60,547 nt of DNA from an uncultured Candidatus Saccharibacteria bacterium (GTDB taxonomy: Bacteria > Patescibacteriota > Minisyncoccia > Phycocordibacterales > CAIRYW01), in the NCBI GenBank assembly GCA_964487135.1, contig CAZAOU010000003.1, positions 1 to 60,547 of the forward strand, given 5' to 3'. Of this stretch, positions 3,528 through 60,547 are shown in pieces; the first letter of the stretch is position 1, and every line of letters starts with the position of its first letter. A program made the translations under genes and the position numbers. A model generated the notes under the pieces. The model was not told the DNA's origin and ran no database searches. It saw only the letters and a list, made by a program, of their open reading frames with translations.

Positions 3528-3567
3528 AGAGCTTTTAGCTGATAGCTATTAGGAAAATACAAACACA

Positions 3568-3598
3568 AAAGCCGGCGAGGTTTAACCTCGCCGGCTTT
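3568..3598 (+). terminator. Hairpin terminator after groEL
   Basis: aaagccggcgagg-tttaa-cctcgccggcttt perfect stem. Confidence 0.75.
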
Positions 3599-3681
3599 GA
3601 ATTTTTGTGTTAGTTTAGGAAAGAATCGAGCCTAAAGTGGGCTTGAAAAACTACAACAGAAATCCAGCACAATAAAACAAA

Positions 3682-4377
3682 ATGAGAAAAAATCCTATCT
3701 TCGTCGCTCTCGACGTCGAGCCCTTGCGAGCTGTCGACCTTATCGATCAACTCCATGATCTGGGTGTTGGCTTCAAGGTTGGCACTGCAACGGGTATTCA
3801 ACATCAAGCGACAATCGTCAAAAACGCTAAACTTCGGGGAGCACCTGTTTTTCTCGATTGCAAGTGGGCAAATACGCCTGATGTGGTTGCAGCGGCGGTT
3901 CGTGAAGCGGTCGAAATGGGAATCGATCTCTGCAATGTGATGATTGGAGACAATGGCCCTGAATCAATCAAGTCTGCCGTCGAGGCGGCACGAGGAAGCC
4001 AGACGCAAGTCATTGGTGTGACGGTCCTCACGACGCGTGACAAACATTCACTTCAAGCCACCGGAGTTGAAGTCGATGATGTGTCGGCTCAGGTCATGCT
4101 TCTTGCCAATTTGGCCAATCGGATGGGGTTGCACGGCGTCGTTGCGAGTGCACAGGAAGTGAAAACTCTGCGTGCTCATTTGGGCCGAGGTTTTCGCCTC
4201 ACCATTCCCGGGATTACATTCGGAGGCACCACCGGCAGTGATCAGAAACGAACTGGCACACCGAGACAAGCATTGGATGATGGTGCAACCGATCTCGTGA
4301 TCGGGTCGGCTATTTACAAATCTGCTGATCCGCGTGCGACGACCGAAGCGATTATCGAGTCGCTTGAGCTCAGTTAG
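3682..4377 (+). CDS. pyrF: Orotidine-5'-phosphate decarboxylase-like protein (divergent, GC-rich)
   Basis: IFVALD, FKVG, FLDCKWANTPD, PGI..SDQKR..TP..A...GA..LVIG; several catalytic positions altered. Confidence 0.75.
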   Translation: MRKNPIFVALDVEPLRAVDLIDQLHDLGVGFKVGTATGIQHQATIVKNAKLRGAPVFLDCKWANTPDVVAAAVREAVEMGIDLCNVMIGDNGPESIKSAVEAARGSQTQVIGVTVLTTRDKHSLQATGVEVDDVSAQVMLLANLANRMGLHGVVASAQEVKTLRAHLGRGFRLTIPGITFGGTTGSDQKRTGTPRQALDDGATDLVIGSAIYKSADPRATTEAIIESLELS

Positions 4378-4531
4378 AGCGGGCACTGAATTACCGGTAA
4401 AGTTCTTACGGCGCGCGAAACTATTCGCGCAATTTTTATAATTGAATTTTAAAATATATAAGGTAGAGTTGTTTAGGTTGCCCGTTTGGGTGAGGTTGGT
4501 TTTGGTTCACATTCAAAAAAACACACCACAC

Positions 4532-5314
4532 ATGACAAAAAAAGCTAGTGCACTTCGGCCGATCAATGAGGTCTGGAGTTTCTTTGAAATCCTCAAGGCC
4601 TTAAACGGTCTTCTCATCAGACCACGCAATCCGGATGGATCATGGGATGGTCCGCTTTTCGGTTACGCGGCAACGGCTCCCGACGGCAAAAACTTCGTCG
4701 GTAACGTCTATGCCGACTGTTCCGTCATCGAAGAGTCGCTCCATGCTATGACACTTCTCGCGCGTCGATTGCTTGCTCTGCTCGGCGATCGCATCGATTC
4801 GATTGATGCTTTCTTGGGTATGCCGATGGGAGGTCTTGCTTTGGCACAGGAACTCGCACGTCTTAGCGACCGAATCTATCTCTTTCCCGAGAAGAATGTG
4901 TTGGTTGCCAAAACCCCCACTTCTCGCGAGCAGGCAGATCTCGCTTTTGGTCGCCACCGCGTCGAACCTGGCATGAACTGCGTTCTGGTTGAGGACGTGG
5001 TCAATAATGTCAGCACGACCGGACGAGCGATTACGAAAGTTCAGGAGCAAGGTGGAATAGTTCTCGCGATCGTCTGCATGCTGAATCGGTCGCTTATCGT
5101 GGAGACTTCGTATCACCATGAGCCGTCAGGGTTCAACATTCCGATTATTGCCCTTGAGCGTCGGCAGATCGAAGAGTTCCAGCAAAGCGATGCGGAAGTT
5201 GCTACGGATATCGCTGCGGGAAATCTTTTTCCGAAGCCCAAAGACAATCGAGCAGACATTCTGCGCATCATGCGCGAAGCTGGCCCTGACTCGACTTCCT
5301 GGTTTCGGCTCTAA
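4532..5314 (+). CDS. Orotate phosphoribosyltransferase-like type I PRTase (divergent, GC-rich)
   Basis: GMPMGGLALA and VLVEDVVNNVSTT (PRPP-loop-like); follows pyrF; ATG at 4532 preferred over 4442. Confidence 0.7.
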   Translation: MTKKASALRPINEVWSFFEILKALNGLLIRPRNPDGSWDGPLFGYAATAPDGKNFVGNVYADCSVIEESLHAMTLLARRLLALLGDRIDSIDAFLGMPMGGLALAQELARLSDRIYLFPEKNVLVAKTPTSREQADLAFGRHRVEPGMNCVLVEDVVNNVSTTGRAITKVQEQGGIVLAIVCMLNRSLIVETSYHHEPSGFNIPIIALERRQIEEFQQSDAEVATDIAAGNLFPKPKDNRADILRIMREAGPDSTSWFRL

Positions 5315-5436
5315 AGAGCTCTTTCGTCATCATCGCGGGCATAAAGCTCGCAATTTTTATATTCAAATCATATCCATGCTATAATTTAGGGGTCGGAATT
5401 CTCTAAAATATTAACTAAAAAATTTAAACTAATTTT

Positions 5437-5994
5437 ATGTCACCTCTAATTATTACTCTAATTGTTCTCGCCGTTCTTGTTGTCATAATTATTGGAATGT
5501 ATAACCGTTTTGTTTCTTTGGTAAATCGAACAAAAGAAGCATGGTCAGATATTGAGGTTCAACTAAAACGTCGTTACGACTTAATTCCAAATCTTGTGAA
5601 TTCTGTTAAAGGTTATGCAACTCATGAATCTGGAACTTTTGACAAAGTAACACAAGCAAGAAGCCAAGCAATGCAAGCTGGAAATCCTCACGACAAAGGC
5701 GAGGCAGAAAATATGCTTAGCGGAGCTTTGAAAAGTTTATTTGCTGTTGCAGAGGCGTATCCAGATCTAAAAGCGAATACAAACTTTCTTGAACTTCAGA
5801 GAGAGCTTTCTGATACAGAAAATAAAATTCAAGCAGCGCGAAGATTTTATAACGGCAATGTTCGCGATCTAAACATATCTGTAGAATCTTTCCCAAACAA
5901 TATCATTGCTAAATCTTTTGGTTTTTCAAAAATGGAATTGTTTGATCTACCAGACGGTTCCGATGCTCAAAACCCTGTTGAAGTTAAGTTCTAA
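5437..5994 (+). CDS. lemA: LemA family protein
   Basis: N-terminal TM, YN.FV..N..EAWSDIEVQLKRRYDLIPNLV, EAYPDLKAN..F..LQ, AARRFYN. Confidence 0.95.
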   Translation: MSPLIITLIVLAVLVVIIIGMYNRFVSLVNRTKEAWSDIEVQLKRRYDLIPNLVNSVKGYATHESGTFDKVTQARSQAMQAGNPHDKGEAENMLSGALKSLFAVAEAYPDLKANTNFLELQRELSDTENKIQAARRFYNGNVRDLNISVESFPNNIIAKSFGFSKMELFDLPDGSDAQNPVEVKF

Positions 5995-6036
5995 TTTAAA
6001 GCTCACGGCTAGAAGCTAATAGCTATCAGCTTTATT

Positions 6037-6945
6037 ATGGCAACACTTTATACACATCAATCAAGTAATATTTGGAAAACGTATCTCCTTATGTCTGTGT
6101 TTTTTGGATTTGTTGTTTTAATTGGTTGGTGGGTAAGTTATTACAACAATAATCCGTCAATATTATTTTTTGCAGTTATTTTTAGTGTTGTGATGAATAT
6201 TGGAAGTTATTGGTTTTCTGACAAAATCGCGCTTTCGGTTTCTGGTGCAAAAAAAATAGAAATGAAAGATAATCCCGAGCTTTGGAGAATCACAGAAAAT
6301 ATTGCAATTACAGCAGGTCTTCCAATGCCTTCACTTCATATAATAGAGGATTCGTCTCCAAACGCTTTTGCAACAGGTCGTGATAAAAATCATGCAGCTA
6401 TCGCTGTTACTACCGGTCTTTTAGAAAGGTTGGATCGCTCAGAGCTTGAGGGTGTTTTGGCTCACGAGTTCGCTCACATTGGCAATCGCGACATACTTCT
6501 TATGAGTGTAATTGCTGTGCTTGTTGGTTTGATTCAAATTTTGGCTGATTGGATTATCAGAATTTCTCTTCATAGCGATAACGACAACAAACATCCCGTA
6601 TTTGTTGTTTTGGGTTTTGTTCTTATGATTTTTTCTCCAATAATTGCTTTTATTATTCAGATGGCAATTTCTCGTAAGCGTGAATTTTTGGCAGACGCCA
6701 CCGGAGCTTTAATAACAAGGTATCCAGAAGGACTAGCTTCTGCTCTTGAAAAAATTTCTGATTATCACGGACCACTTCAAAAAGCTAACAAAGGAACTGC
6801 CCATCTATTTATTTCTAGTCCTTTTGGTGGAGATCAAGATGGTGATGGTATTCCAGATAAAAAACAAAAAAGAAGTTTTATCGCAAAGCTATTTTTGACA
6901 CATCCACCTGTAGAGGAGAGAATTAAGGCATTAAGAAATAATTAA
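6037..6945 (+). CDS. htpX: M48 zinc metalloprotease HtpX
   Basis: PNAFATG, ELEGVLAHEFAHI (HExxH), SRKREFLADA, THPPVEERI; adjacent to lemA. Confidence 0.93.
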   Translation: MATLYTHQSSNIWKTYLLMSVFFGFVVLIGWWVSYYNNNPSILFFAVIFSVVMNIGSYWFSDKIALSVSGAKKIEMKDNPELWRITENIAITAGLPMPSLHIIEDSSPNAFATGRDKNHAAIAVTTGLLERLDRSELEGVLAHEFAHIGNRDILLMSVIAVLVGLIQILADWIIRISLHSDNDNKHPVFVVLGFVLMIFSPIIAFIIQMAISRKREFLADATGALITRYPEGLASALEKISDYHGPLQKANKGTAHLFISSPFGGDQDGDGIPDKKQKRSFIAKLFLTHPPVEERIKALRNN

Positions 6946-6951
6946 AATATT

Positions 6952-7767
6952 ATGTTTCAAACAATTAAAAGAAGTTTTTTGGATCGTGAGTTTTATAATG
7001 AAATAAGTAATTTTTCTTACGGTCAGTCTGTAAAATTTTTTCTAAAAGTTGCGATTATTATTTCTCTTGTTCTCGGAATTATTTCTGGTATTACTGCGGG
7101 CTTTTCCTTTAAGTTTATTTCTGAGATGGCAGGTAAAAAAGTTCTTTCCTCTTTTCCTGAAGATTTGGTAATAACGATTAAAGATAAAAAGGTAAGCATG
7201 AATAAGAGTGAACCACTAGTTATACCTTTTGAAAAAGAGGTAACTATTAAAGAAGGTCTGACTTTTAAAAATATTTTAGTTGTAGATACTAATGCGCAAA
7301 ATTCAATAGATTCATACAAAAATTCTCAAGCGTTTTTTGTTGTTTCTAGTACTCATATCGCTTATACAGATGGTGATGGTCAAGTTGTTTTTACTCCTGT
7401 TTTAGCTGATATGGTTGTTAACAAATCTACAATTAATAAAATATTGTCTTATTCAAAATATATTCCATTTATATCAATGCTTTTATTTATAACCCTGTTT
7501 TTCTTTAGGGGAATATTTGCACTTTGTTCACTTATAATTGTTGCTCTAATTCTTTATTTTGTCTTCAAAGTTATTGGTTCAAAAAGAACTTATAAAGAAA
7601 GTTTCATAATTAGCTTGTATGCTTCTCTATTGCCATTCGTTGTTACTAGTTTTTTGTTTATAGTGTTTATCTCTATTCCTTCTATTTTTGGCTTCGCAAC
7701 ACTAATTATTGCTCTTTGGATGACTCGTAAAGATTCATCTACTGCGCCAGTTTCTGTTTCTGAGTAA
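6952..7767 (+). CDS. Membrane protein, DUF1189-like
   Basis: One N-terminal TM, a soluble domain and three C-terminal TMs. Confidence 0.5.
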   Translation: MFQTIKRSFLDREFYNEISNFSYGQSVKFFLKVAIIISLVLGIISGITAGFSFKFISEMAGKKVLSSFPEDLVITIKDKKVSMNKSEPLVIPFEKEVTIKEGLTFKNILVVDTNAQNSIDSYKNSQAFFVVSSTHIAYTDGDGQVVFTPVLADMVVNKSTINKILSYSKYIPFISMLLFITLFFFRGIFALCSLIIVALILYFVFKVIGSKRTYKESFIISLYASLLPFVVTSFLFIVFISIPSIFGFATLIIALWMTRKDSSTAPVSVSE

Positions 7768-7796
7768 ATAAAAATGCTCCGCTAAGTGGCGGAACT

Positions 7797-8216
7797 TTAT
7801 GAAAGGACAACGAGACAGACCTCGTAGTTGTTTTCTCCTCCAAGGAGGAGGGCTCCACGGTGATGACCTCGAACCTCACGGAACTTTCTCGGGAGGATTA
7901 AGCCTTGAAGGATTATTCCTTGAGGCGTTACCTCGAACAGGTCGGCGCTGATGCCGGGGGTTTCATCAGAAAACTCCTCGAGTCTTACGCTGCCATTCAG
8001 CCAGAGTTCGTGATGTTGCTTGCCACCAGTGAGTCGAAATGCGTGAATGACGATCCCATTTTGATGGGAAAGAATTTCGACCCTGTCTTCTCCTCTTGCT
8101 CGGTAAGGGTTGCCGATGTCGATGATGCTTCCGGGTTTGGCTTGTTTCAGAACTCCTGCGAGGTCCTGAACGTTGCAGGTGATTGGGATTGCTTGGAGTA
8201 ACGGGAGGGTATTCAT
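7797..8216 (-). CDS. Hypothetical protein (GC-rich accessory gene)
   Basis: 139-aa ORF with upstream TTGACA..TAAAAT and a downstream hairpin plus T-run. Confidence 0.55.
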   Translation of the reverse strand: MNTLPLLQAIPITCNVQDLAGVLKQAKPGSIIDIGNPYRARGEDRVEILSHQNGIVIHAFRLTGGKQHHELWLNGSVRLEEFSDETPGISADLFEVTPQGIILQGLILPRKFREVRGHHRGALLLGGENNYEVCLVVLS

Positions 8217-8298
8217 ATGTTTGTTCTGATTTTATTATCAAGACTTTCTTTGTCAATCAGTTTTCAAATTTGATTTTTTTGCTAGTATTGAGCACACT

Positions 8299-8385
8299 GG
8301 AGGCGTCGCATAGCGGTCTAGTGCGCTGCCTTGGAAAGGCAGTAAGGGAGAAATTCCTTCGCGAGTTCAAATCTCGCCGCCTCCG
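8299..8385 (+). tRNA. tRNA-Ser(GGA)
   Basis: GGAGGCG/CGCCTCC acceptor, ctgcc-ttGGAaa-ggcag anticodon arm, long variable arm, GTTCAAATC. Confidence 0.95.
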
Positions 8386-8406
8386 AAATAAATTTTAATC
8401 AAAATC

Positions 8407-8997
8407 ATGCCAAAAATAGCAATTGATGAATTAAAAAAAGACCTGGAGGTAAAGCATTCTTTTGGAGGTGAGTCTTTTTCTTTTTCTACAACATGGGGCC
8501 TTTTTAGTCCAGAAAAAATAGATGAAGGCTCAATTCTTCTTATCAACTCTTTGCTTCAAGAAAAAGCAGATTCAATACTCGACATTGGTTGTGGATGTGG
8601 GGTAATAGGAATTGTTTTGGGAAAACTATTAAAGGCAAAAGAAGTTCATCTTATCGATAAAGATTTTGTTGCGGTAGAATATTCAAAAAAGAATGCGCAT
8701 AAAAATAATTTAGAAAATGTTCAGGTATATTTAAGTAATGGTTTCAGTAATGTGCCGGAGGGAAAACAGTTTGATCTTATTGTTTCAAACTTGCCTGCAA
8801 AAGTTAGTAAAGAATTTTTCTGGATTCTCTTTGAAGAGGTGAGACAACATTTAAAGATTGGTGGAAAATTTGTTGTAGTGACAATTGCTGGTTTGGAATA
8901 CTTCACAAAAAAGAATTTTGAGAAGGTTTTTGGAAACTACAATCTTGTTTCAAGTTCAAGGTCATATTTTGTGGCGGAAGCTATAAAAACAGAGTAA
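8407..8997 (+). CDS. Class I SAM methyltransferase, RsmC/MTS family
   Basis: GLFSPEKIDEGS..L, ILDIGCGCGVIG, FDLIVSNLP. Confidence 0.85.
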   Translation: MPKIAIDELKKDLEVKHSFGGESFSFSTTWGLFSPEKIDEGSILLINSLLQEKADSILDIGCGCGVIGIVLGKLLKAKEVHLIDKDFVAVEYSKKNAHKNNLENVQVYLSNGFSNVPEGKQFDLIVSNLPAKVSKEFFWILFEEVRQHLKIGGKFVVVTIAGLEYFTKKNFEKVFGNYNLVSSSRSYFVAEAIKTE

Positions 8998-9009
8998 AAT
9001 ATCTTAACA

Positions 9010-9624: not shown

Positions 9625-9634
9625 ATATAATATT

Positions 9635-11359: not shown

Positions 11360-11378
11360 TAGCTTATAATTCTTAATA

Positions 11379-24401: not shown

Positions 24402-25090
24402 AGATGTTGAATGTGTTTAATTTTTTTAATTTTTTCCAAAATAAGTATAACGGCGATCACCCCAAGCCATACACCTGCAAATATAACCATTACACCGAAC
24501 TTGCTTGTAATTATAAGATGATTAAAGACTGCGTGCAACAAAACTCCAAGACTAAATCCTAAAATACCGTATATTATTTTAATTATTTTTTTCTCAAAAA
24601 ATGTAGATGCTAGAGCGAGACCTATAATTCCTGAAGAGAGAACATGAAGAAGTGATGCTCCAATAAATCTTAGGTTAAGTGTGGCGAAACTTTTTGCAAT
24701 ATCACCATCTGCAAAAGGTCCTAGCAAGAAGAGTGTGTTTTCTAAAGCAGCAAAACCTAAGGATGCTGTTACTAGATATATCACCGCGTCCACCGGTTCA
24801 TCCGCAAACCTTGTTTTTAGGGCTATCATATAGGCCGCAAATAATTTTAGACCTTCTTCAATAACAGACCACATTACAAATGATGGAAAGGAGAAATCTG
24901 GTAATATTTTTCCAACTATTTTTTCTAATGGAATTGCAATTAAAACCATTCCCATGCCGGCAAAAAATGTTCCGGTAATAAGACTTCGGGGTTCCATGTG
25001 TTTTTCTTCTTTTAGCCAAAATTTAAGCCAAAAAATTGCTGGAATGATACCCCCCAAAAGAGCATACGCTATAACTTCTAAGTCAATCAT
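24398..25090 (-). CDS. PrsW family intramembrane metalloprotease
   Basis: VIEEGLK, LGFAALEN, LLHVLS, LLHAVFN. Confidence 0.88.
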   Translation of the reverse strand: MIDLEVIAYALLGGIIPAIFWLKFWLKEEKHMEPRSLITGTFFAGMGMVLIAIPLEKIVGKILPDFSFPSFVMWSVIEEGLKLFAAYMIALKTRFADEPVDAVIYLVTASLGFAALENTLFLLGPFADGDIAKSFATLNLRFIGASLLHVLSSGIIGLALASTFFEKKIIKIIYGILGFSLGVLLHAVFNHLIITSKFGVMVIFAGVWLGVIAVILILEKIKKIKHIQHL

Positions 25091-27474: not shown

Positions 27475-28608
27475 TTATAAAGACAGATTTCCCTGGGCAT
27501 TTTTTGGCGCTTTTAGTTTTTTTGATTTTATTCCCAAATATCCGGCAACAGCAATCATTAAAGCATTATCAGTTGATTGTTTCTTTTTTGGCAGAAGGAG
27601 TTTTATTTTGTGTGTCTTAGCAAGTTTTTTTATATTTTTTTGCAAAAATTTATTTGCAGAAACACCTCCGCCAACAATAAGTGTTTTTAGTTCATATTTT
27701 TCAATGGCTTTTTGGGTTTTGTATAAAAGTGTTTCTACAACCGCGTTTTCAAATTCTCTAGCAATTTTTAGTTTTATTTCTTCAGTAATTTCTCCTAAAT
27801 CTCTAATCAAATAAAGAACGGCGGTTTTTATTCCAGAAAAAGAAAAATTAAAATCAGGGCTTTTTATCATGGGGCGTGGCAATGACCAGCTACTAGCTTC
27901 TAGTTTTAAGCTCCTAGCTTTTTCTGCTAAGGCAGAAATTTGTGGTCCTCCTGGATAGGGAAGATTAAGCATTCTTGCCACTTTATCAAACGCTTCGCCT
28001 ACAGCATCATCAAGAGTTTTTCCTATAATTTGATAATTTAGAGGTTTTTTAGAATATACAAGTTCGGTGTGTCCGCCACTTACTAAAAGGGCTAGGGCAG
28101 GGTAAGAAATATATTCTTTATTAAGTAGAGGGGTAAGAAAGTGACCTTCCATATGATTTACTCCATATACTGGAATTTTCCAAAGTTCGCCAAGAGCTCT
28201 TGCAAAATTTATTCCAACCCAAAGAGTTGGCTCTAGTCCTGGGCCTTCAGTAACAACAATCGCATCAATTTTTGGTTTTGAAATATTGATTATGTGTTTT
28301 TCAAATTGTTCAAAGAGAAATGTCTCCTTCATTAATATTTTTTGAATTTTATTTTTTATTTTAGAATCAGCGTCTTTGTTTTTTGTTTTTTGATTTTTTA
28401 AAACTCTCAAAAAAAGTGGAATAAGATTTTTTTGATGCTCTCTTTTTGCCATCATAGGAAACACCCCTCCATATTGTTCATGAAGTTTTATTTGTGAATG
28501 TAAAGCTTGCGCAATAATATTAAAATTTGGTTTTAAAACTGTTCCCGATGCATCAACTAAAGCCACAGCCGTCTCATCACAACTTGTTTCAATTGCTAGT
28601 ATTTTCAT
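27475..28608 (-). CDS. tsaD: tRNA N6-adenosine threonylcarbamoyltransferase TsaD
   Basis: ILAIETSCDETAVA, GVNHMEGH, LLVSGGHT, DDAVGEAFDKVAR, STDNALMIA. Confidence 0.97.
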   Translation of the reverse strand: MKILAIETSCDETAVALVDASGTVLKPNFNIIAQALHSQIKLHEQYGGVFPMMAKREHQKNLIPLFLRVLKNQKTKNKDADSKIKNKIQKILMKETFLFEQFEKHIINISKPKIDAIVVTEGPGLEPTLWVGINFARALGELWKIPVYGVNHMEGHFLTPLLNKEYISYPALALLVSGGHTELVYSKKPLNYQIIGKTLDDAVGEAFDKVARMLNLPYPGGPQISALAEKARSLKLEASSWSLPRPMIKSPDFNFSFSGIKTAVLYLIRDLGEITEEIKLKIAREFENAVVETLLYKTQKAIEKYELKTLIVGGGVSANKFLQKNIKKLAKTHKIKLLLPKKKQSTDNALMIAVAGYLGIKSKKLKAPKNAQGNLSL

Positions 28609-41108: not shown

Positions 41109-43557
41109 AAAAACAGAAGAAAACGGAAATGTAGAAATAAAAAATGTTGTATCTCGCAACATTGTTTCTGAAATGCGAGAAGCATATATAGATTATGCGA
41201 TGTCTGTTATCACTGACAGAGCACTTCCTGACGTGCGCGATGGTCTCAAGCCAGTTCATCGAAGAATTCTTTATACAATGTATGAGTTGGGACTTAATCC
41301 GGGAGGAAAAACAAGAAAGAGTGCAAAAATTATTGGAGATGTTACTGGTAATTACCATCCTCACGGAACCGCCGCTGCTTATGAAGCACTTGTAAAACTT
41401 GCTCAAGAATTTTCTATCAGGTATCCATTAGTGATTGGTCAGGGAAACTTCGGATCAATTGATGGTGATCCTCCTGCTGCAGACAGATACACAGAAGCTA
41501 AGATGTCTAAGGTTTCGGTTGAAATGCTTCAGGATATACAAAAGGATTCTGTTGATTGGCGTTCAAACTATGAAAACACAAGAAAAGAACCGGCAGTTTT
41601 GCCCGCAGCTGTTCCAAATTTAATTTTAAATGGAACTCTTGGTATTGCTGTTGGTATGGCAACTAATATTCCTCCTCATAATTTAGGAGAGGTTTGTTCA
41701 GCGGTTGAATATTTGGTTGATCATAAAGATGCAACTAGTGAAGATTTGCATCAGTTTATAAAAGCTCCAGATTTTCCAACAGGAGGAATGATATTTGGAA
41801 AAAAAGATTTACTCCAAGCTTATAATACCGGAAGAGGAAGTGTTGTTGTTAGAGGTGAAGCAGAAATTGTTGAAGAAAAGGCGGGAACGTCAATAGTTGT
41901 TACATCTCTTCCTTATAGAGTAAATAAAGCAGAGCTTATTGTTGCCATCGCTGATTTGGTTAGAGATAAAAAACTTGAGGGAATCAGAGACATAAGAGAC
42001 GAATCAGCAAAAGATATAAGAATTGTTATAGAACTTAAAAAAGGAGGACATCCACAAACGGTTCTGAATTATCTTTACAAGCACACTCGTCTTGAAGAGC
42101 CTTTCCATTTTAATATCGTTGCTCTAGTTGACGGAGTTCCTCAAACACTTTCGCTTAAATCTGTTTTGGAATCTTTTATTGCCCACAGAAGAGAAGTTGT
42201 AAAAAGAAGAACAGAATTTGATTTAAATAAAGCTTTAGATAGAGAGCATATTCTTTCTGGACTCAAAAAAGCCCTTGATCATATTGATGAAATAATCAAA
42301 CTTATAAAAAAATCCAAAACTGTTGAAGAGGCTCGTGAAGGTTTAATGAAGACATTCAAGTTTTCAGAGCGTCAAGCAAATGCAATTTTGGAAATGAAAT
42401 TGCAAAAACTCGCTGGTCTTGAAAGAAAAAAAATAGAAGAAGAATTAGATGCTGTTAGAGTTCTTATTAAAGATTTAAAAGATATTTTGGAAAATCCTAA
42501 AAGAATTCCCCAGATAATAAAATCCGAAATAAAAGCTGTTGGAGAGAAACATGGAGATGATAGAAGAACAAAAGTGTATGCTCACGAGGCAAAATCTTTC
42601 TCAATGGAAGATTTAGTTCCAGATGAAGAAAATGTTTTGGTATATACTGCCGGTGGATATGTAAAAAGAACTCATCCAGACGAATACAGAAAACAAAAAA
42701 GAGGAGGAGTTGGGGTTATTGACCTAGATACAAAAGAAGAGGATTTTATTACTCATCTTGTGACAACAACAACTCATAGCGACATGCTCTTCTTTACCGA
42801 TAAAGGAAAGGCATACCAAATAAAAATGTATGAGCTTCCAGAAGGTAGACGCGCAACAAAAGGAAAATCAATAATGAACTTCCTTTCACTTTCAGATGAT
42901 GAAAAAGTAACATCAATACTTCCAATGCCTAAAAATATTAAAAAAGGTAGCGGACTTTCTTTAATGCTTGTGACAAAGCAGGGAACTGGTAAAAAAGTTT
43001 CTGCTGACAGTTTTACTGATGTAAGAAGAAGTGGAATTATGGCCATAAGATTAGATTCAGGAGACGAACTCTCATCCGCTCTTCTTGTAGAAAAAGGCGA
43101 CAGCATTATGACAGTTTCTTCTGGGGGGCAGTCTATTAGATTTGCCGAAAAAGATGTTAGAGAAATGGGACGAGCAGCTGGAGGAGTTAGGGTTATGAAA
43201 CTTTCTAAAGGTGAAACAGTTGTTGGTGCAGATGTTGTTAAAAAGGATTCAAAAGATGCAAAAGTTTTTGTGGTATCTTCAAAAGGATTCGGAAAAAAGA
43301 CAGAAATTGATGAGTATAAAATTCAAGGAAGAGGTGGTTCAGGAATAAAAACAATTAAAGTTACTGACAAAACAGGTTCTCTAATATCTGCCAAAGTTGT
43401 TACCGAAGAATTTGAAGAAGCTGTTGCAATTTCTAAGAAAAGTCAGGTTATCAGATGCTCTTTAGGGGAAATTCCAAATCTAGGACGAGATACTCAGGGT
43501 GTTAGAATCATGAAATTGCGCGAAGGAGATTCTTTGGCATCAGTAATTTGTTTATAA
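41092..43557 (+). CDS. gyrA: DNA gyrase subunit A
   Basis: [41 protein letters not shown], GyrA-box QKRGGVG, beta-pinwheel repeats. Confidence 0.98.
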
Positions 43558-43646
43558 AGTGGTTAGTTGTTAGTGAATAGTGGATAGTATAATAGTAATG
43601 TTTTATTTGTTTTTTACTTAAGACTATAAACTATTCACTTTTAACT

Positions 43647-44174
43647 ATGTTTAGTAATCCTCAAAAAAATTTATTACAAACAGGTATTGCTCCCGGTGCT
43701 GTTGTTGCTGATTTTTCTGCCGGTCTCGGACACTACACTTTAGAAGTTGCTTCTCTGGTTGGAAATCATGGTGAAGTTTTTGCGATAGATATAAGAGATG
43801 ATCTGCTTAAACTTCTCGCTAAAGAAGCTAAAGAAAAAAAACTAAAAAATATCCATTTTATATCTGGAAATATAAGTAAAGTTGGAGGTTCCGGAATAAA
43901 AGATAATTCTATAGATTTGGTGATTATTGCCAATACTTTTTTTACCATCAAAAACAAAGCTCACACTACTGAGGAGATAAAAAGAGTGTTAAAAGACAAA
44001 GGCAGAATTTTGTTTATTGAATGGAGTGATTCTTTTGCAGGTATTGGGCCTCATAGAGATCATGTTTTTCCCAAACAAAAAGCTTTAGCGTTTTTTCAAA
44101 GTCACAATTTTGCTTTGGTAAGAGAAATTGAAGCGGGAGATCATCATTACGGATTTATTTTCAGAAAAAAATAA
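43647..44174 (+). CDS. Class I SAM-dependent methyltransferase
   Basis: VVADFSAGLGHY, VFAIDIR, DLVIIAN, EAGDHHYG. Confidence 0.85.
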   Translation: MFSNPQKNLLQTGIAPGAVVADFSAGLGHYTLEVASLVGNHGEVFAIDIRDDLLKLLAKEAKEKKLKNIHFISGNISKVGGSGIKDNSIDLVIIANTFFTIKNKAHTTEEIKRVLKDKGRILFIEWSDSFAGIGPHRDHVFPKQKALAFFQSHNFALVREIEAGDHHYGFIFRKK

Positions 44175-51825: not shown

Positions 51826-51991
51826 AATCCTTGCTGAGGTAGAACCCTCAGTATTTTTTTGCAAATGTTTGTTTTTTTGATATATTCTCTCTGTAGTGAA
51901 GAGGAATGAATGATGTTTGATAATGTGTTTTTGTTAAAAAATATATTTTATTATTCACTAGCCACTCGTCACTAATCACTTTCCAATTTTT

Positions 51992-52064
51992 CCACCCATA
52001 GCTCAGCTGGTAGAGCAGATCCCTCTTAAGGATAAGGTCGTAGGTTCGATCCCTACTGGGTGGA
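51992..52064 (+). tRNA. tRNA-Lys(CTT)
   Basis: CCACCCA/TGGGTGG acceptor, ctCTTaa loop, gtagg-TTCGATC-cctac. Confidence 0.92.
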
Positions 52065-52229
52065 TATGTTATGCATTGTGTAAGCGTATTGTGTAAGCGA
52101 TAGCTTACACGTAGGGATCGAACAGCGGAGTATATTTTTTCCAGCAGGAAAAAATACGAGCTGGTGCCCAATCCGAGCTTTGCGACGGCAAAGCGAGAGA
52201 TGAGGGAGATCCCTACTGGGTGGATATGT
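52048..52229 (+). mobile_element. Small structured insert flanked by a 22-bp duplication of the tRNA-Lys 3' end
   Basis: gatccctactgggtggatatgt at 52048-52069 and 52208-52229; internal AGCA and GACG hairpins and an inverted copy of the T-arm. Confidence 0.6.
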
Positions 52230-52329
52230 ATTGTATAAGCTATAAAAATCTCCGCTAGGCCTGGCCCCGCGGAAGCCAAAAATAACTAACTACTCGTCAC
52301 TTTCTTTTGCAAAATGTTATAATCTCGCA

Positions 52330-54626: not shown

Positions 54627-56493
54627 GAGTAAATCATCACTTATAATTATTTGTTTATTTTTTTTGGGAATATTTTTTTTAATTATAGGAGTGGGTTCTG
54701 TTTTTAATATTGGTTATGTTTCTAATATTTTAGAAACCAAAGAAACTGAAAAGGTTTTTAATCCCGATCGGTATGGTTGGAAGGAAGTTGTCTCTACAAA
54801 TAAATGGAGTAAGAGAGATTCGCATACGGAGTATCAATTTGGAGGAAAGTTGTTTATTTTGGGTGGTTTAAATGGTGAACCGGGAATTGTTGCTCATCAC
54901 ACTGTTGTATACGAAAATGTGCCACATTACAACGATATATGGGTTAGTGATGATGGGGCTTCGTGGACTATGGCTTTAGAACATGCAAAATTTCCTCCAG
55001 TAAGATCAGCGTCTGTTGTTGAATACGGTGGAGCTCTTTATATGTATGGAGGATGGAGTCCAGAAATTGGATACACACTTGGTATTTGGAAATCATTGGA
55101 TGGAATAAATTGGGAACAAATTTTAAAAAAACCAGATTATGATGAAAGAGAAGGTCAGATTGTAAGAGTCTTTAAAGGTAAAATTTATTTGATAGGCGGA
55201 GTAAATTATGGGCTCAAAAAAACTTTTAATGATGTTTGGGAATCAAGTGACGGAATTAATTTTAAAAAAATTACAGACGCTCCTTGGGCTTCAAGATGGG
55301 ATCATGATGTGGCGGAATTGAATGGGGAACTTTATTTAGCTTCTGGCATGAGTTCTGCAACGGTTGGATATCACGATCTCTGGAAATCTTCTGACGGAAT
55401 AAATTGGATTGAGGTTTCATCTTCTACTCCATGGGGATTAAAACAGGGGCACGGTCTCGTAAATTATAAAGGCTATTTATGGTTTGTGGGTGGACTTAAC
55501 ACTTCAAATGATGAAGGAAGAAGTGATACTTGGTATTCAAAAGATGGGACAAATTGGAACAAACTCCCATTTGACGGGGAGTGGACTGGTAGGGAAGATA
55601 TGTCGGTTTATATTTTTAAGGACAAAATTTATATAAATGGTGGGATGGGGGCAGATTGGAGGTGGCAAGATGACGCTTGGGTTTTAGATGAAATATCTTG
55701 TGGAGATGGTCTTCAAGAAAAAATAAGGTCTATTGATAAAAATTATATTTCAAGTGATGAGTGGGCTTTATATTGTTTAGACAAAACGGGAGAACCTTTT
55801 TATATGGCTGGGACAAATGTGGCACATACTCCACATGCCATTGCTAGTGTCACAAAATTGATGACAGCATTGATTGCTTCCGAAAAAATAAAAGATGAAG
55901 ATGTTATTGAGGTCAAAAAAGAAACTATAGGGGTAGGAAGTCTAAATAGGTATAAAGTAGGAGAGAGATTTTATTTTTATCAAGCGTTAAGCTCTCTTTT
56001 GCTGGAGTCTGACAATGATATTGCTAGGAGTATTTCTTATTTTGTTGGAGATAATTATTTTTTGGAATTGATGAATAATAAAGCGAGGGAAATTGGGATG
56101 AAGGATACTACTTTTAAAAATTCTTCCGGTTTAGATTTGTCTGTTCAAATTCAAAGCAATACATCTAGTCCTTATGATTTAGCTAAATTGGTTACTTACA
56201 TACTTAAAAATAAATCTCTGATATTTGATATAGGAAAAAAGAATTTTATGGAAGTAAAAGATATATCTGGTAAAACCCATCATATTGCAAACTCAACCAA
56301 TGAATTACTTAAAGATTTAGAAGTTAAAGATTTTATTGTTGGAGCTAAAACTGGTGAAACCCCACTCGCAAAGAAAAATTTAGTGACTGTTTTTAAGGAT
56401 ATAGGTGGAAACAAGTTTATTTCTATTGTGTTAGGGTCAGCTGATCATTTCTCTGACACTAAAAAAATTATGGGATTGGTGTTACAGAAATAA
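54619..56493 (+). CDS. Kelch/Asp-box beta-propeller fused to a D-Ala-D-Ala carboxypeptidase (S11)
   Basis: Six Kelch-like repeats, then ASVTKLMTA (SxxK), ESDN (SxN), AKTG. Confidence 0.88.
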   Translation: MDKSKSSLIIICLFFLGIFFLIIGVGSVFNIGYVSNILETKETEKVFNPDRYGWKEVVSTNKWSKRDSHTEYQFGGKLFILGGLNGEPGIVAHHTVVYENVPHYNDIWVSDDGASWTMALEHAKFPPVRSASVVEYGGALYMYGGWSPEIGYTLGIWKSLDGINWEQILKKPDYDEREGQIVRVFKGKIYLIGGVNYGLKKTFNDVWESSDGINFKKITDAPWASRWDHDVAELNGELYLASGMSSATVGYHDLWKSSDGINWIEVSSSTPWGLKQGHGLVNYKGYLWFVGGLNTSNDEGRSDTWYSKDGTNWNKLPFDGEWTGREDMSVYIFKDKIYINGGMGADWRWQDDAWVLDEISCGDGLQEKIRSIDKNYISSDEWALYCLDKTGEPFYMAGTNVAHTPHAIASVTKLMTALIASEKIKDEDVIEVKKETIGVGSLNRYKVGERFYFYQALSSLLLESDNDIARSISYFVGDNYFLELMNNKAREIGMKDTTFKNSSGLDLSVQIQSNTSSPYDLAKLVTYILKNKSLIFDIGKKNFMEVKDISGKTHHIANSTNELLKDLEVKDFIVGAKTGETPLAKKNLVTVFKDIGGNKFISIVLGSADHFSDTKKIMGLVLQK

Positions 56494-56552
56494 AGGAAAA
56501 CTACTAAGTACTATTAGTTTTTACCTCTACCTTATATGTTATAATATTAAGT

Positions 56553-57074
56553 GTGAGAAAAAGAGGTTGGACAATAAAAGAATTGAATATTGCTGTAGGA
56601 AAATCTAAAAGCATAAGACAAGTAATATCAAAGTTGGGACTTGTTGAAGCGGGAGGAAACTATGAACAAATAAAAAGAGAAATCAAATCTAATAATATTT
56701 CTACTAAGCATTTTACGGGTAAGGGTTGGCGAAAAGGTTTAACAATTCCCACAGTGCCAGTAATAAGTTTAAAAAAAATTTTGGTTAAAAACAGTTCTTT
56801 TCAAAGTCACAAGTTAAAGAAAAGATTGTTTTTAGAAAAAATAAAAAAACAAAAATGTGAAATTTGTGGATGGAACAAACAAAGTATTGATGGTAGGATT
56901 CCAGTCGAGCTGGACCATATCAACGGTAACAGGTATGATAATCGTCTAGAGAATTTAAGGATTTTGTGTCCAAACTGTCATAGTTTACAGCCAACACACA
57001 GAGGATTAAATAAGAGAAAATGCCCGAGTGGCGTAATTGGTAGCCGCAGGAGACTTAAAATTTCCCGACCGTAA
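56553..57074 (+). CDS. HNH endonuclease
   Basis: CEICG, ELDHINGNRYDNRLENLRILCPNCH; 3' end overlaps tRNA-Leu(TAA). Confidence 0.9.
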   Translation: MRKRGWTIKELNIAVGKSKSIRQVISKLGLVEAGGNYEQIKREIKSNNISTKHFTGKGWRKGLTIPTVPVISLKKILVKNSSFQSHKLKKRLFLEKIKKQKCEICGWNKQSIDGRIPVELDHINGNRYDNRLENLRILCPNCHSLQPTHRGLNKRKCPSGVIGSRRRLKISRP

Positions 57075-57105
57075 GGTCATGTGGGTTCGACTCCCACCTC
57101 GGGCA
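57022..57105 (+). tRNA. tRNA-Leu(TAA)
   Basis: GCCCGAG/CTCGGGC acceptor, ggaga-ctTAAaa-tttcc, variable arm. Confidence 0.93.
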
Positions 57106-57148
57106 TAATTAAAAAAATATAAAAAACATGCTACACTAGGCCGAAAAA

Positions 57149-57212
57149 TGGCGTGGTGGCGAAGTGCATAAAAAGATAGACTAGAGCTGAAGTCTGTACA
57201 AACAATTCCATA
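57149..57212 (+). pseudogene. Degenerate partial copy of tRNA-Cys
   Basis: aaatggcgtggtggcgaagtg identical to 57240-57260; gctgaagtctg..ttccat also shared; no T-arm. Confidence 0.65.
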
Positions 57213-57243
57213 AGGATTGAGGTCATTTATAATATGGAGAAAT

Positions 57244-57315
57244 GGCGTGGTGGCGAAGTGGTAACGCTGAAGTCTGCAAAACTTCCATGCGCGGGTTCGA
57301 TTCCCGCCCACGCCT
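57244..57315 (+). tRNA. tRNA-Cys(GCA)
   Basis: GGCGTGG/CCACGCC acceptor, U73, gaagt-ctGCAaa-acttc. Confidence 0.95.
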
Positions 57316-57322
57316 TAAGTCA

Positions 57323-57649
57323 TTATCCCAAAGACAAACCGTCAATTTTTATACGGTTTTTTTCTCCTAGATCTATTTCAAAATCTACATAGGGAATTCG
57401 TGCCAGCGAAGATTCTTTTTTTATAAACTCCCTAAAATCACTTCGTTTTCTTTTACAAAAATTTAGGGCATTTTCTTCTGCGCTGTCTGGAAAAGTGGTG
57501 AAATAAATAATCGCACGACCGCCTTTATCAATAAGTTTTGCACGAGTAACTGTTATAAGACTTTCTCTTCCGGCTTCTTCTGCAATAAATTTTGAAGCCA
57601 GTTCAACTAAAAGACTTTCTTCTCTTTTTTCGTGAAAAGGACTTAACAT
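57323..57649 (-). CDS. rbfA: Ribosome-binding factor A
   Basis: LITVTRAKL..A.IYF, RIPYVDFEID; directly downstream of infB. Confidence 0.8.
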   Translation of the reverse strand: MLSPFHEKREESLLVELASKFIAEEAGRESLITVTRAKLIDKGGRAIIYFTTFPDSAEENALNFCKRKRSDFREFIKKESSLARIPYVDFEIDLGEKNRIKIDGLSLG

Positions 57650-57650
57650 A

Positions 57651-59168
57651 TTATTTTTCTACAATCTTATATGCTTCTATTTTGTCTCCTGGAGCCAATT
57701 CAATCTTTGATTCAATTGTTGCTCCAAACTCCCCATCTTTTATTTCTTTGGTTTCAACTCGTGATTGTTGTAAAATTTTAATCTTTCCTTTTCCAATTTC
57801 TGTATCTCTTCTTAATATTTTTACTTCACTATCAACAGAGATGGATCCATCTTCCACTCTAGCACCTACGACTTGCTTGTCTTTTGTTTTGCTAAAATAC
57901 TTTAATATTTTGGCTCTACCTGTCATTTCTTCCACTTTCATTTTTGGAGTTTTATTTTTAACAAATTCATCCATCCATTCAGTAAGTTTATATATAATGT
58001 TAAAAGATTCTATGGGCACAATAAGTCTCTCTGCTAATGTTTTTGCCGCAGTATCAATTTTTGTTTCAAAACCAACAATAACACTGCCCGGAGTTGAGCC
58101 AGCAGTTTTTACATCATTCTCTGATATAAATCCAACGCCCGTATAAAGAATTTTTAATGCCACTCTTTCGCTTTTTATTTTTTTTAGTTCATGGATTATT
58201 GCTTCTATTACATCGGTTGTAGATGCCTTAATTATCATAGGAATTGTGATTGCGTTTTCAGTTTCGCCACCTATTACTATTGTTGTTGGAATCTTTGGCC
58301 CACTTAATTTAAATTGTTCTGTTTTTTCTTCCGCCTCTTTTTTTGAATTTACAACTTCAAAGATACTTCCAACTGGAGGTAATGTAGAAAAGCCCACTAT
58401 TTTTACTGGATCGCTTGGATGTGAACTCTCAATTTTTTTTCCTTGAAAATCTTCCATAATTCTTGTTGGAGCAAAAGAACTTTCACACACAACAAATTGG
58501 CCTGTTTTTATGGATCCATCCTTTATAATCAAAGTAGCGCTGATTCCTTTATTTTTGTCATTAAATGCTTCAATAACTACACCTTCTGCATTTTTTGAGT
58601 CATCTGCTTTTAGATCAAGAATATCAGAAAGTAGGATTATCATCTGTAGTAATTCTTCTACACCTTCTCCGGTAATGGCCGAAACGGGAACAGCTGGAAC
58701 TTCTCCTCCGTATCCCTCTACATAAACTTCAGCTTCTGCAAGTTGTTGTTTTACTTTATCAATATTTGCGTTAGGGCGATCTATTTTGTTCATCGCGATA
58801 ATTAAAGGAAGATTTGCCTTCTTTATACAATCAAGAGCCTCAACTGTTTGAGGTTTTATTCCTTCATCTGCTGCAACAACCAAGATTGCTATATCTGCAA
58901 CACTTGCTCCTCTGCTTCGTAGCTCACAGAAAGCTTCGTGTCCTGGCGTATCTAAAAAGGTTATAGATCGGATTTTTTTGTCTTCGTCGGCTTTCTGGAC
59001 TTTGTAAGCACTCATTTTTTGAGTAATACCTCCAGCTTCTTTCTCGGTAATATTTGTTTTTCTAATGTAATCCAAAAGAGAAGATTTGCCATGGTCAATA
59101 TGACCCATCACCGCAACAACAGGTGGGCGCGACAAATTTGTATTGGTTTTTGGGGGAGTTGAGGACAT
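57651..59168 (-). CDS. infB: Translation initiation factor IF-2 (short form)
   Basis: RPPVVAVMGHIDHGKSSLLD, FLDTPGHEAF, VVAADEG, NKID. Confidence 0.97.
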   Translation of the reverse strand: MSSTPPKTNTNLSRPPVVAVMGHIDHGKSSLLDYIRKTNITEKEAGGITQKMSAYKVQKADEDKKIRSITFLDTPGHEAFCELRSRGASVADIAILVVAADEGIKPQTVEALDCIKKANLPLIIAMNKIDRPNANIDKVKQQLAEAEVYVEGYGGEVPAVPVSAITGEGVEELLQMIILLSDILDLKADDSKNAEGVVIEAFNDKNKGISATLIIKDGSIKTGQFVVCESSFAPTRIMEDFQGKKIESSHPSDPVKIVGFSTLPPVGSIFEVVNSKKEAEEKTEQFKLSGPKIPTTIVIGGETENAITIPMIIKASTTDVIEAIIHELKKIKSERVALKILYTGVGFISENDVKTAGSTPGSVIVGFETKIDTAAKTLAERLIVPIESFNIIYKLTEWMDEFVKNKTPKMKVEEMTGRAKILKYFSKTKDKQVVGARVEDGSISVDSEVKILRRDTEIGKGKIKILQQSRVETKEIKDGEFGATIESKIELAPGDKIEAYKIVEK

Positions 59169-59238
59169 GGGCAGGATTATACACTAATTTTGTAAAAAAT
59201 CATTGATTTTTAGTTTTTATCGTCTAGTATGAGGCATT

Positions 59239-60423
59239 ATGAATCTTAAGAATAAAAGAATATATTTAGACTACGCTAGTGCAACTCCAATAGGTAAAAA
59301 AGCAGCGAAAGCTTTGACTTCAAGTGGGGGTGATTTTTTTAATCCTTCGTCTTTGTATAAAGAGGGGGTTGATACAAAGAAAAAATTAGAAGAGGCGCGC
59401 AAAAGCGTGGCCACGCTTTTGCGCGCCCGCCCAGAAAGTATCTTTTTTACTTCATCCGGCACAGAATCAAATAATATTGCAATTCAAGGTGTTGTTAAAT
59501 CTGTTTCTGCCACTATCAAAAATCCTCATATTATAATTTCTGCGATTGAGCATTCCTCAATAAAAGAATTAATTCCTTATTTAAAAAGTTTGGGTGCGGT
59601 TGTCGATGAAATATTTCCTGATGAAAATGGAATTATTGATCCAAAAAAAATTTCAGAAAAAATCCGCAAAGAAACAATTTTGGTATCAGTGATGCATGTC
59701 AATAATGAAACCGGTGTAATACAGCCAATAAAAGAAATTTCTAGAGTCATAAAAAAATCTCGTCAAAATTTTGAACATAATTTTCCCATTTTTCACTGTG
59801 ATATGTGTCAGTCAATAAATACTTTGCCAATAGATTTAATTTCTATGGGGGTTGATATGGCAACTCTCGATAGTCTTAAATTTTATGGTCCAAAAGTTGG
59901 TATTTTATATAAAAAGATTGATTTAAAAATTAATCCTTTAGTCTATGGTGGAGGGCAAGAGAAGGGTTTGAGAAGTGGTACTGAAAATGTGTCAAATATA
60001 TTTGCTTGTGCTGAGGCACTATCTGAGACCATTTCTTTTCAAAAGAAAGAAGCTAAAAGATTGAGTGTTATTCAGAACTATTTTGAGAAAAAAATAAAAA
60101 AAATTTCAGAAGATTTTATTATAAATTGTTCAAATTCTCCCAGAGTTCCAAATATATCTAGTATTTCAATAAAAGGACTGGATGCAGAGTTTGCAGTTTT
60201 GCAAATGGATGCTATGGGTTTTGCAATAAGTTCAGGAAGTGCCTGCTTATCTTCTAAAGAAGATTCTTATTCTTATGTTATAAAGGCTCTCGGAAGAGAT
60301 GATGGAAGTGAAAAATCAACATTAAGATTTTCTTTTGGAAGAGGAACTACAAAAAAACACATAGATGATTGTATAGAATCTTTAAAAAAGGTATTATTAA
60401 TTCAAGGAATAAGAAGTGTATAG
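59239..60423 (+). CDS. iscS: Cysteine desulfurase (IscS/NifS type)
   Basis: IYLDYASATP, NPSS, GTESNN, HVNNETG, SLKFYGPK, RSGTEN, SSGSAC. Confidence 0.92.
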   Translation: MNLKNKRIYLDYASATPIGKKAAKALTSSGGDFFNPSSLYKEGVDTKKKLEEARKSVATLLRARPESIFFTSSGTESNNIAIQGVVKSVSATIKNPHIIISAIEHSSIKELIPYLKSLGAVVDEIFPDENGIIDPKKISEKIRKETILVSVMHVNNETGVIQPIKEISRVIKKSRQNFEHNFPIFHCDMCQSINTLPIDLISMGVDMATLDSLKFYGPKVGILYKKIDLKINPLVYGGGQEKGLRSGTENVSNIFACAEALSETISFQKKEAKRLSVIQNYFEKKIKKISEDFIINCSNSPRVPNISSISIKGLDAEFAVLQMDAMGFAISSGSACLSSKEDSYSYVIKALGRDDGSEKSTLRFSFGRGTTKKHIDDCIESLKKVLLIQGIRSV

Positions 60424-60478
60424 TGTATGGTGAATAGTTGTTGGAGAGATAAACATAAAATTATTGATTCTAATTTTT

Positions 60479-60547
60479 TTCACTATAAACTATTCACTAT
60501 AAACTATTCACTATAAACTATTCACTATAAACTATTCACTATAAACT
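60479..60547 (+). repeat. Tandem 14-bp repeat (TTCACTATAAACTA), about 5 copies, runs off the window
   Basis: Four perfect units plus 13/14 of a fifth; each unit is two ACT-heptamers. Confidence 0.95.

Follow-up and report, generated by a model that had tools for sequence, protein, structure and literature searches.

Heptamer arrays of a Patescibacteria genome as probable arms of hairpin elements resembling ribosomal RNA intervening sequences

Tandem repeats of seven-nucleotide units have been known in bacteria since 1990, as short tandemly repeated repetitive (STRR) sequences, and their statistical excess since 2007. We know of no accepted origin or function for them, and the intervening sequences (IVS) of bacterial rRNA and the PF05635 open reading frame (ORF) are, to our knowledge, equally unexplained. 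In Coxiella burnetii, the IVS at helix 45 of the 23S rRNA has a stem with 2-4 tandem GACAGAT heptamers 5' of the S23p ORF; the heptamer number varies by strain and RNase III cuts at the first repeat (PMC4990558). IVS bearing an S23p/PF05635 gene also occur in Leptospira, Brucella and Xanthomonas (PMC4990558), and rRNA genes of the Candidate Phyla Radiation (CPR) contain short uncharacterised insertions as well as 23S_rRNA_IVP ORFs, in both 16S and 23S (PMC11270868). In Xanthomonas, GGGAATC repeats form 70-75 convergent pairs per genome (PMC4692102). Here we analyse the heptamer arrays in a stretch of 60,547 nucleotides (the window: GenBank contig CAZAOU010000003.1, positions 1-60547, our contig C3) and in the genome that contains it, G000 (711 kb, 35 contigs, 35% GC, 97% complete), whose gyrA groups with Patescibacteria/Paceibacteria metagenome-assembled genomes labelled Zambryski-, Taylor- and Nomurabacteria. 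A first-pass annotation of the window had listed such arrays at gene boundaries; the key feature that it missed is that the arrays are mostly arms of inverted pairs, tied to PF05635 and rRNA intervening-sequence elements.

We searched the genome for the same 3-mer occurring at least four times at lag 7, and compared the result with block shuffles. This search returned 99 arrays in G000 against 18.4 in the shuffles. Other periods give 30-79 arrays, nearly all of them AAA/TTT, and among periods 4-12 other than 7 there was no excess in G000 beyond AAA/TTT or codon multiples. A second count, with at least three exact cores per array, gave 21 AGT, 18 ACT and 12 AGC(T)/GCT arrays, compared with 5, 1 and 1 in one shuffle. 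Position matrices define two families: AGTGRAT, whose reverse complement is the ACT type, and AGCTnnn (AGCTWTT). The core is 96-100% fixed in both (A/G/T or A/G/C/T at 0.96-1.00), the variation is in positions 4-7 or 5-7, and the commonest unit accounts for only 17 of 143 units in the AGT family and 7 of 51 in the AGCT family. The near-identical units expected of slippage are not what is found; the only perfect array, at 60482-60547, is perfect at 14 bp. Four consecutive AGCTNNN units occur 9 times in G000, where the pattern read backwards occurs 0 times, and between 0 and 51 times per genome over 21 genomes of the same family, where the backwards control is always 0.

These figures extend part of the first-pass description, and trim another part. 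The fixed core of 3-4 nt with a variable remainder proved to be a property of genome-wide sequence families. Placement at gene boundaries held as well, with 36 of 44 strong arrays situated outside long ORFs, in DNA that makes up 13% of the genome (binomial p=8e-25), and so did the proposed likeness to STRR-type repeats of other bacteria: the arrays, like heptanucleotide simple sequence repeats (SSRs) and STRR, are head-to-tail 7-nt units dispersed in non-coding DNA. The arrays had also been called pervasive, and lag-7 periodicity no higher than in shuffled intergenic DNA had been named as the result that would refute them, a test that they pass, though weakly. They are real, and yet only 29 of 455 non-ORF stretches (~6% of spacers) carry one; the lag-7 autocorrelation excess in non-ORF DNA exists but is small (z ~2.6-3.4), and it vanishes (z=-0.1) once 51 arrays are masked. 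The arrays are discrete elements and not a pervasive periodicity.

Within the window, array coordinates were verified by direct reading of the sequence. Every array listed previously is present at its reported position or within a few bases of it, and the ACT-type array at the gyrA junction starts at 43616 and not at 43623; two further arrays (27888-27922 and 52285-52305) were absent from the earlier list. The complete set is as follows.

1851..1877, plus strand: loose ACT-type array (AACTATT AAACTAT AAACTAC TAAACTT, spacing 8/7/8) in the groES-groEL spacer, 6 nt 5' of the groEL ATG (1884)
3530..3550, unstranded: AGCT-type array of three units (AGCTTTT AGCTGAT AGCTATT), 2 nt past the groEL stop and 5' of a GC-rich terminator hairpin at ~3570-3598
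6000..6034, unstranded: AGCT/GGCT array of five units filling the spacer between a LemA/MamQ-like gene (stop 5994) and htpX (ATG 6037), its end 2 nt before the ATG
27888..27922, unstranded: AGCT-type array of five units (four exact cores), in frame in tsaD (27475-28608, minus strand)
43558..43592, plus strand: AGT-type array of five units, 5' arm of a hairpin, beginning directly past the gyrA stop codon
43593..43615, plus strand: T-rich loop between the two arms of the gyrA junction
43616..43650, plus strand: ACT-type array of five units, 3' arm of the hairpin, running into the start codon (ATG, 43647) of a gene for a class I methyltransferase
51957..51984, plus strand: solo ACT-type array of four units, 7 nt 5' of tRNA-Lys(CTT) at 51991-52065
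52285..52305, plus strand: solo ACT-type array of three units, 24 nt 5' of a FemAB-like gene (ATG 52330)
60415..60442, plus strand: AGT-type array of four units, 5' arm, overlapping the final codons of a NifS/IscS-like cysteine desulfurase gene (stop 60421-60423)
60482..60547, plus strand: perfect (ACTATAA ACTATTC) 14-bp repeat, at least 4.9 copies, 3' arm, interrupted by a 100-N gap

On either strand, the AGT-type array lies 5' of the ACT-type array, and this polarity turns two neighbouring arrays into an inverted pair. We found seven paired loci, of the types AGT...ACT or AGCT...AGCT: C1 1743/1774, window 43558/43616, window 60415/60482, C4 57826/57875, C9 8061/8152, C12 1608/1658 and C12 23543/23659. 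At these loci terminal inverted repeats form a long stem, as in IVS-type elements, and folding gives z from -4.0 to -9.0 at six of them. The predicted stems of the window have minimum free energies of -25.7 kcal/mol (43558-43592 with 43616-43650; z=-4.5) and -31.8 kcal/mol (60415-60442 with 60482-60547; z=-5.1). At an eighth locus, C6 2283, the array pairs with a degenerate left arm at -43 kcal/mol. Consistent with the polarity, the best complementary partner lies on the right side for 16 of 21 AGT arrays and on the left side for 12 of 18 ACT arrays. The position of AGT arrays after stop codons and of ACT arrays before start codons follows because an inverted pair of fixed polarity fills a short spacer. 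As a separate observation, the loop of some heptamer-armed hairpins encloses a GC-rich, bidirectional terminator-like hairpin, e.g. AAAAAACCGCCTCTGGCGGTTTTTT (G000 C9:8061-8186, L043 5170-5290 and L047 3699-3800).

Arrays are also found outside the spacers within operons. Two follow a stop codon and precede an intrinsic terminator (3530, behind groEL, and C24 2970) and should therefore be transcribed as 3' untranslated region (UTR), the first inside that of groEL. Three stand 5' of tRNA genes (window 51957, before tRNA-Lys at 51991; C2 31274; C16 12099). In-frame arrays occur within the genes of UvrC (two), KsgA, RsmE (two) and TsaD (window 27888); the residues that the last encodes, EKARSLKLEASSW, belong to a variable loop with the GGP motif on one side and PRPM on the other. 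The tRNA-Lys(CTT) gene of the window is followed by ~140 nt that repeat the tRNA 3' end (51991-52230), with a 22-bp duplicate at 52048-52069 and 52208-52229, and on each side of this block stands an ACT-type array, the two in direct orientation to each other (51957 and 52285).

One G000 copy is inserted at an rRNA helix tip, all the others lying outside rRNA. The AGCT-armed hairpin C4:57826-57895 is inside the 16S gene, where Infernal identified a 108-nt insertion replacing the loop at small-subunit model positions ~1158-1161. The same helix tip contains a 136-nt insert with ATGAGTn arms in G112 and an insert with ATAACTn arms in G113, and a plain 40-nt hairpin in three other genomes. The 3' tail of this 16S (G000 C4:57441-57455; L082 2441-2455, minus strand) reads GGAUUAUCUCAAAU where the consensus is GGAUCACCUCCUUU, without the CCUCC anti-Shine-Dalgarno. 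The 23S gene is present in the assembly as a 3' fragment only (model positions 2541-2925), with the classical 23S IVS sites outside it, and a whole-genome large-subunit search of G000 found no further part. This fragment (C20:7693-8393, L087, minus strand) has a 331-nt insertion at model position ~2621, in which we found no heptamer periodicity; a group I intron is one possible identity for it, some other rRNA insertion of CPR type another.

If the stems matter in the transcript, the RNA strand would be expected to pair better than its complement, and this signature is present. In a set of 35 hairpins, made up of PF05635 cassettes, gyrA-junction hairpins and the G000 pairs, 27 have a sense-strand duplex of higher stability than its antisense counterpart (mean difference -3.4 kcal/mol; p=0.004, Wilcoxon), with 220 G-U pairs in sense against 171 in antisense. 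The stability bias and the copy in 16S together favour a structure at the level of RNA over a lattice on DNA.

The second line of evidence concerns PF05635 ("23S rRNA intervening-sequence protein"). G000 has a single PF05635 gene, C12:24889-25005 (45.6 bits, above cut-off), and directly 5' of it, at 24835-24862, stands the AGT-type array AGTGAAT AGGGGTA AGTGAAT AGTGAAA; all other array copies of this genome are gene-less. We surveyed relatives and recovered 24 PF05635 loci above the Pfam cut-off. Arrays are present on both flanks of 20 of these, the period being 7 at 15 loci, 8 at 3 and 9 at 2; of the remainder, two are borderline and two have no periodic arms. Period 5 or 6 on both flanks was found at 0 of the 24 loci, and four weak sub-threshold matches have no arms. 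The flank-to-flank duplexes range from -29 to -74 kcal/mol. Array families of G000 recur among these arms: in G112:C69, AGCT arms at 1243-1267 and 1636-1660 bracket a PF05635 gene at 1301-1615, AGCT arms also surround PF05635 in G002 and G016, and TAGTGGC arms do so in G035. G112, by far the richest genome in AGCT arrays (51 pattern matches), has three tandem PF05635 genes in this region (G112:C69:1301-3681; genes at 1301-1615, 2239-2553 and 3367-3681). Among genomes sampled at their 10-kb gyrA locus, PF05635 was present in 9 of the 12 with arrays there and 19 of the 68 without (Fisher p=0.003, kinship ignored). Within the family, it is present in 6 of 6 genomes with at least three AGCT arrays versus 8 of 15 others, a difference that reaches only p=0.06.

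The explanation that we favour, and consider the probable one, is that the arrays are arms, paired or solo, of IVS-like transcribed hairpin elements, mostly gene-less, with stems that serve as RNase III substrates. It builds on features that we observe directly, namely the inverted architecture, the copy in rRNA, the link to PF05635 and, as described below, the turnover of elements. The element is constructed as an ORF-bearing rRNA IVS, with two inverted runs of a 7-nt (sometimes 8-9 nt) unit that make a long imperfect stem, and a loop that is either short (gene-less, as in nearly all G000 copies) or holds a gene for a PF05635 four-helix bundle. The sites occupied are places that tolerate extra RNA: intra-operon spacers, 3' UTRs 5' of terminators, 5' leaders of mRNAs and tRNAs, a 16S helix tip and protein linkers. 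Elements would be transcribed with the host gene, and the stem would form in the sense RNA. On the model of the IVS, this stem may then be cut by the RNase III of the host (gene at C9:2362-3018, 246 bits), which would separate the cistrons or remove the rRNA insert. The number of units would shift by slipped-strand mispairing, and for a partner acting in trans the obvious candidate is the PF05635 protein.

Several points weigh against this explanation. About half of the G000 arrays are solo arms without a convincing partner. True partner arms match each other only modestly better than non-partner arms of the same family, ranking 2-10 of 18, and we dropped arm co-variation as strong evidence on account of these ranks; recognition of the core at the level of the family could explain the pattern as well as pairing does. 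Strand composition could account for part of the sense/antisense bias. The C12 PF05635 gene is cut by the contig end, so that any 3' arm would lie beyond it, and the rest of the gene is in no contig of the assembly. The association with PF05635 rests on 10-kb samples and ignores phylogeny, and G017, G047 and G109 have arrays but no PF05635. Transcription of the stem, cleavage by RNase III and excision from 16S rRNA are steps that we infer. Finally, we know of no mechanism of spread for IVS-type elements.

Some of the same points favour a protein-binding lattice, the alternative that survives best, although we regard it as unlikely. Here a core every 7 nt would be a phased platform for an oligomeric nucleic-acid binder, a PF05635 pentamer or a HutP/TRAP-like protein, and inversion would reflect symmetric binding and not base pairing. 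The nearly invariant core (0.96-1.00) next to freely varying positions 5-7 is what such a reader would leave, and both the many solo arrays and the weak advantage of true partner arms over other arms of the family are compatible with it. Each genome has its own set of cores, as expected if cores co-evolve with a reader encoded in the genome. PF05635 proteins are related to Avd, the nucleic-acid-binding accessory protein of diversity-generating retroelements, which also speaks for the lattice. They are, in addition, toroidal homopentamers (PMC4990558). A single reader protein, however, would not explain why a genome contains several unrelated cores (AGCT and AGTG in G000, up to 3-4 in G003 and G049); three genomes (G017, G047 and G109) have arrays without PF05635; and the excess of G-U pairs in the sense strand is typical of RNA pairing.

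Comparison of relatives shows how the elements change. The junction between gyrA and the methyltransferase gene is syntenic across relatives, with a spacer of 10-17 nt in L008-L010, a terminator hairpin in L006, L007 and L016, and heptamer-armed hairpins with six different cores in G000, L002, L003, L004, L035, L037, L043 and L047. L003 and L004 have different cores with gyrA DNA 85% identical, while L003 and L035 share an identical 29-nt arm though their gyrA DNA is only 66% identical. The closest relative, L001 (6476-6596), has at this junction a 122-nt spacer with a palindrome that has 15-bp terminal inverted repeats, CAGAAAAAATAGTTC ... GAACTATTTTTTCTG, unlike the heptamer hairpins. Linker 1 of UvrC contains, always in frame, an ACT-type array in G000, AGCT-type arrays in L119, L123, L128 and L129, and an AATTG-type array in L126. 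Across genus g7 the numbers of AGCT arrays are 0, 51, 1, 0, 0, 3, 2 and 6. These patterns indicate gain, loss and replacement of elements, and do not fit in-situ slippage alone. We also considered identical 25-mers shared by non-orthologous AGCT arrays of G000 and G051 as evidence of transfer, and set them aside as compatible with chance, given the small vocabulary of units. With regard to UvrC itself, the G000 protein is UvrC-like (C1:54998-56239, 413 aa) and its homologues L119-L131 are short (~410-440 aa); homologues of the family have three hypervariable linkers, with insertions of 8-16 residues in relatives, and UvrC matches come in two pieces split near residue 167 in G056 and G060, and with a gap near residues 256-268 in G074.

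Two further claims of the first-pass annotation need revision, as it had suggested a lineage-specific system and had discounted slippage. The same architecture with other cores is found in many Paceibacteria, so the system is not restricted to one lineage, and the perfect, assembly-breaking 14-bp repeat at 60482 shows that slippage clearly does act. On the whole, that annotation was right in its description and incomplete in its interpretation.

Could the arrays then be plain microsatellites, heptamers that grow by slippage at any spacer (7 nt being favoured) and decay by point mutation, with neither element identity nor function? The repeat at 60482-60547, perfect at 14 bp and long enough to break the assembly, is what such a process produces. 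The heptamer SSR excess of many prokaryotes is put down to slippage by Mrazek (2007), in the account given in PMC4692102, and the heptamer number of the Coxiella IVS differs among strains (PMC4990558). Slippage at random spacers does not, however, predict inverted pairs of fixed polarity, two core families common to ~50 dispersed loci with the reversed pattern at zero, or PF05635 genes bracketed by arrays. Nor does it predict that genomes with gyrA only 66% identical share the same families and an identical 29-mer, or that the same UvrC linker and 16S helix tip hold different cores in different genera. We therefore consider this explanation improbable.

An equally improbable account is that the hairpins are host cis-regulatory punctuation, kept as signals for mRNA processing or stability or as terminators, with ACTATAA units of the 3' arm giving -10-like TATAAA boxes to the genes and tRNAs downstream, in an organism that lacks a Shine-Dalgarno system. 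ACT-type arms do stop short of start codons by 1-7 nt and of the three tRNA genes by 5-10 nt, units containing TATAAA are frequent near the gene-proximal end, and the 16S 3' end (GGAUUAUCUCAAAU) has no CCUCC. Relatives whose gyrA junction is empty have a TATAAT 6-7 nt 5' of the ATG, an arrangement that looks leaderless and suggests leaderless mRNAs. Bidirectional terminators are also enclosed in some hairpin loops (C9 8096-8151, L043 and L047). Yet the distance from TATAAA to the ATG varies, close relatives manage the gyrA junction without any element, and arrays also occur in coding regions and in 16S rRNA, where promoters or terminators make no sense. For the gyrA hairpin, a promoter or terminator role was rejected, since a consensus scan of 43400-43800 found no sigma-70 promoter or terminator.

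Two further candidates can be dismissed briefly: TIGR-Tas arrays were set aside because their repeat units are far longer than 7 nt, and mobilisation by a repetitive extragenic palindrome (REP)-associated tyrosine transposase (RAYT), as in REP doublets (REPINs), was rejected because the RAYT-like gene of G000 is flanked by another repeat and not by heptamer arrays. This Y1_Tnp gene (C10:26961-27623, 43 bits, HUH motif PNHFHLL) has on both flanks the GC-rich hairpin GGCGAGGTTTARCCTCGCC. In the genome as a whole there are 8 copies of this hairpin, among them those at C10:26847-27650, the groEL terminator (3570-3598), C9 24992, C13 18954, C15 9174, C16 504 and C19 9453. Hairpin and gene look like a small REP/RAYT system, separate from the heptamer arrays.

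Returning to IVS-like hairpin elements as the favoured explanation, a wider proposal can be made, which we offer as speculative and consider unlikely. Hairpin elements would make up a widespread class that has so far gone unrecognised, with PF05635 genes and their short-period inverted arms as the autonomous members and gene-less hairpins as miniatures derived from these; recognition or propagation of the arms would be the task of the PF05635 protein; and most bacterial heptamer repeats that lack an explanation would have been seeded by such elements (STRR, GGGAATC of Xanthomonas, and the arrays that CPR genomes have in spacers, in rRNA helices and in protein linkers). Our literature searches found no paper describing heptamer arrays as general arms of PF05635 cassettes, nor dispersed gene-less copies in spacers or protein linkers. 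G000 and its relatives tie heptamer repeats to IVS through the same families in PF05635 stems, a 16S insertion, inter-cistron hairpins and segments read in frame in UvrC, KsgA, RsmE and TsaD. Should this link hold, heptamer repeats of bacteria would have an origin that can be tested, IVS-type elements would extend beyond rRNA, and structured RNA elements would shape operon processing in the ultra-small, Shine-Dalgarno-less genomes of CPR. IVS-type elements in spacers, a 16S helix and proteins may thus help explain the frequency of 7-base repeats in bacteria. A practical consequence is that assemblies from short reads break at the arrays: a contig end truncates the PF05635 gene, and the window itself ends in the perfect 14-bp repeat, which runs into a 100-N scaffold gap, resumes beyond it and ends in ...ATTCACTAATTAA directly before the next ATG (C3 60661).

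We compared the arrays with four kinds of known systems. HutP and TRAP are RNA-binding attenuation proteins that read phased triplets, HutP reading UAG every 7 nt. The likeness of the arrays to their targets is one of working only: a short fixed core at a fixed short spacing, with many G000 units of the form UAGUGnA or UAGCUnn. No HutP or TRAP gene turned up, though none was searched for. In contrast with those targets, cores of relatives are quite different (CGAAAT, GATTTAA, AATTAGG), and arrays are spread genome-wide and not restricted to one leader. REP/REPIN (RAYT) sequences and Rickettsia palindromic elements (RPE) are likewise short, species-specific extragenic repeats, often inverted hairpin doublets at gene ends in operons, and RPE share with our arrays the in-frame insertion in protein genes; the arms described here differ in being tandem 7-nt arrays with a fixed core and a variable rest, not near-identical palindromes of 20-40 bp.

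Closer are the bacterial heptanucleotide repeats: STRR of Calothrix/Nostoc, the period-7 long SSRs (Mrazek 2007) and Xanthomonas GGGAATC. All share with the G000 arrays 7-nt imperfect units that are dispersed and mostly intergenic, along with turnover of length and sequence between close relatives, and GGGAATC also shares the frequent convergent (inverted) pairs. Unlike these repeats, the G000-type arrays have AT-rich cores (AGCT, AGTG) without G-quadruplex potential and several core families per genome, and they are linked to PF05635 cassettes, an rRNA insertion and in-frame protein copies. Finally, the rRNA IVS differ from the G000 elements in that the latter are nearly all gene-less, have their rRNA copy in 16S, lie in mRNA spacers, UTRs, tRNA leaders and in-frame protein linkers and not in 23S rRNA, and would undergo an RNase III excision that is putative, by analogy. 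A PF05635 ORF in the loop, as in the IVS, is found at 20-22 of 24 loci in relatives, with one truncated candidate copy in G000. With the IVS they share the terminal inverted-repeat stem with partly tandem heptamers, the rRNA helix-tip site (here the 108-nt insert in 16S) and a patchy distribution between relatives.

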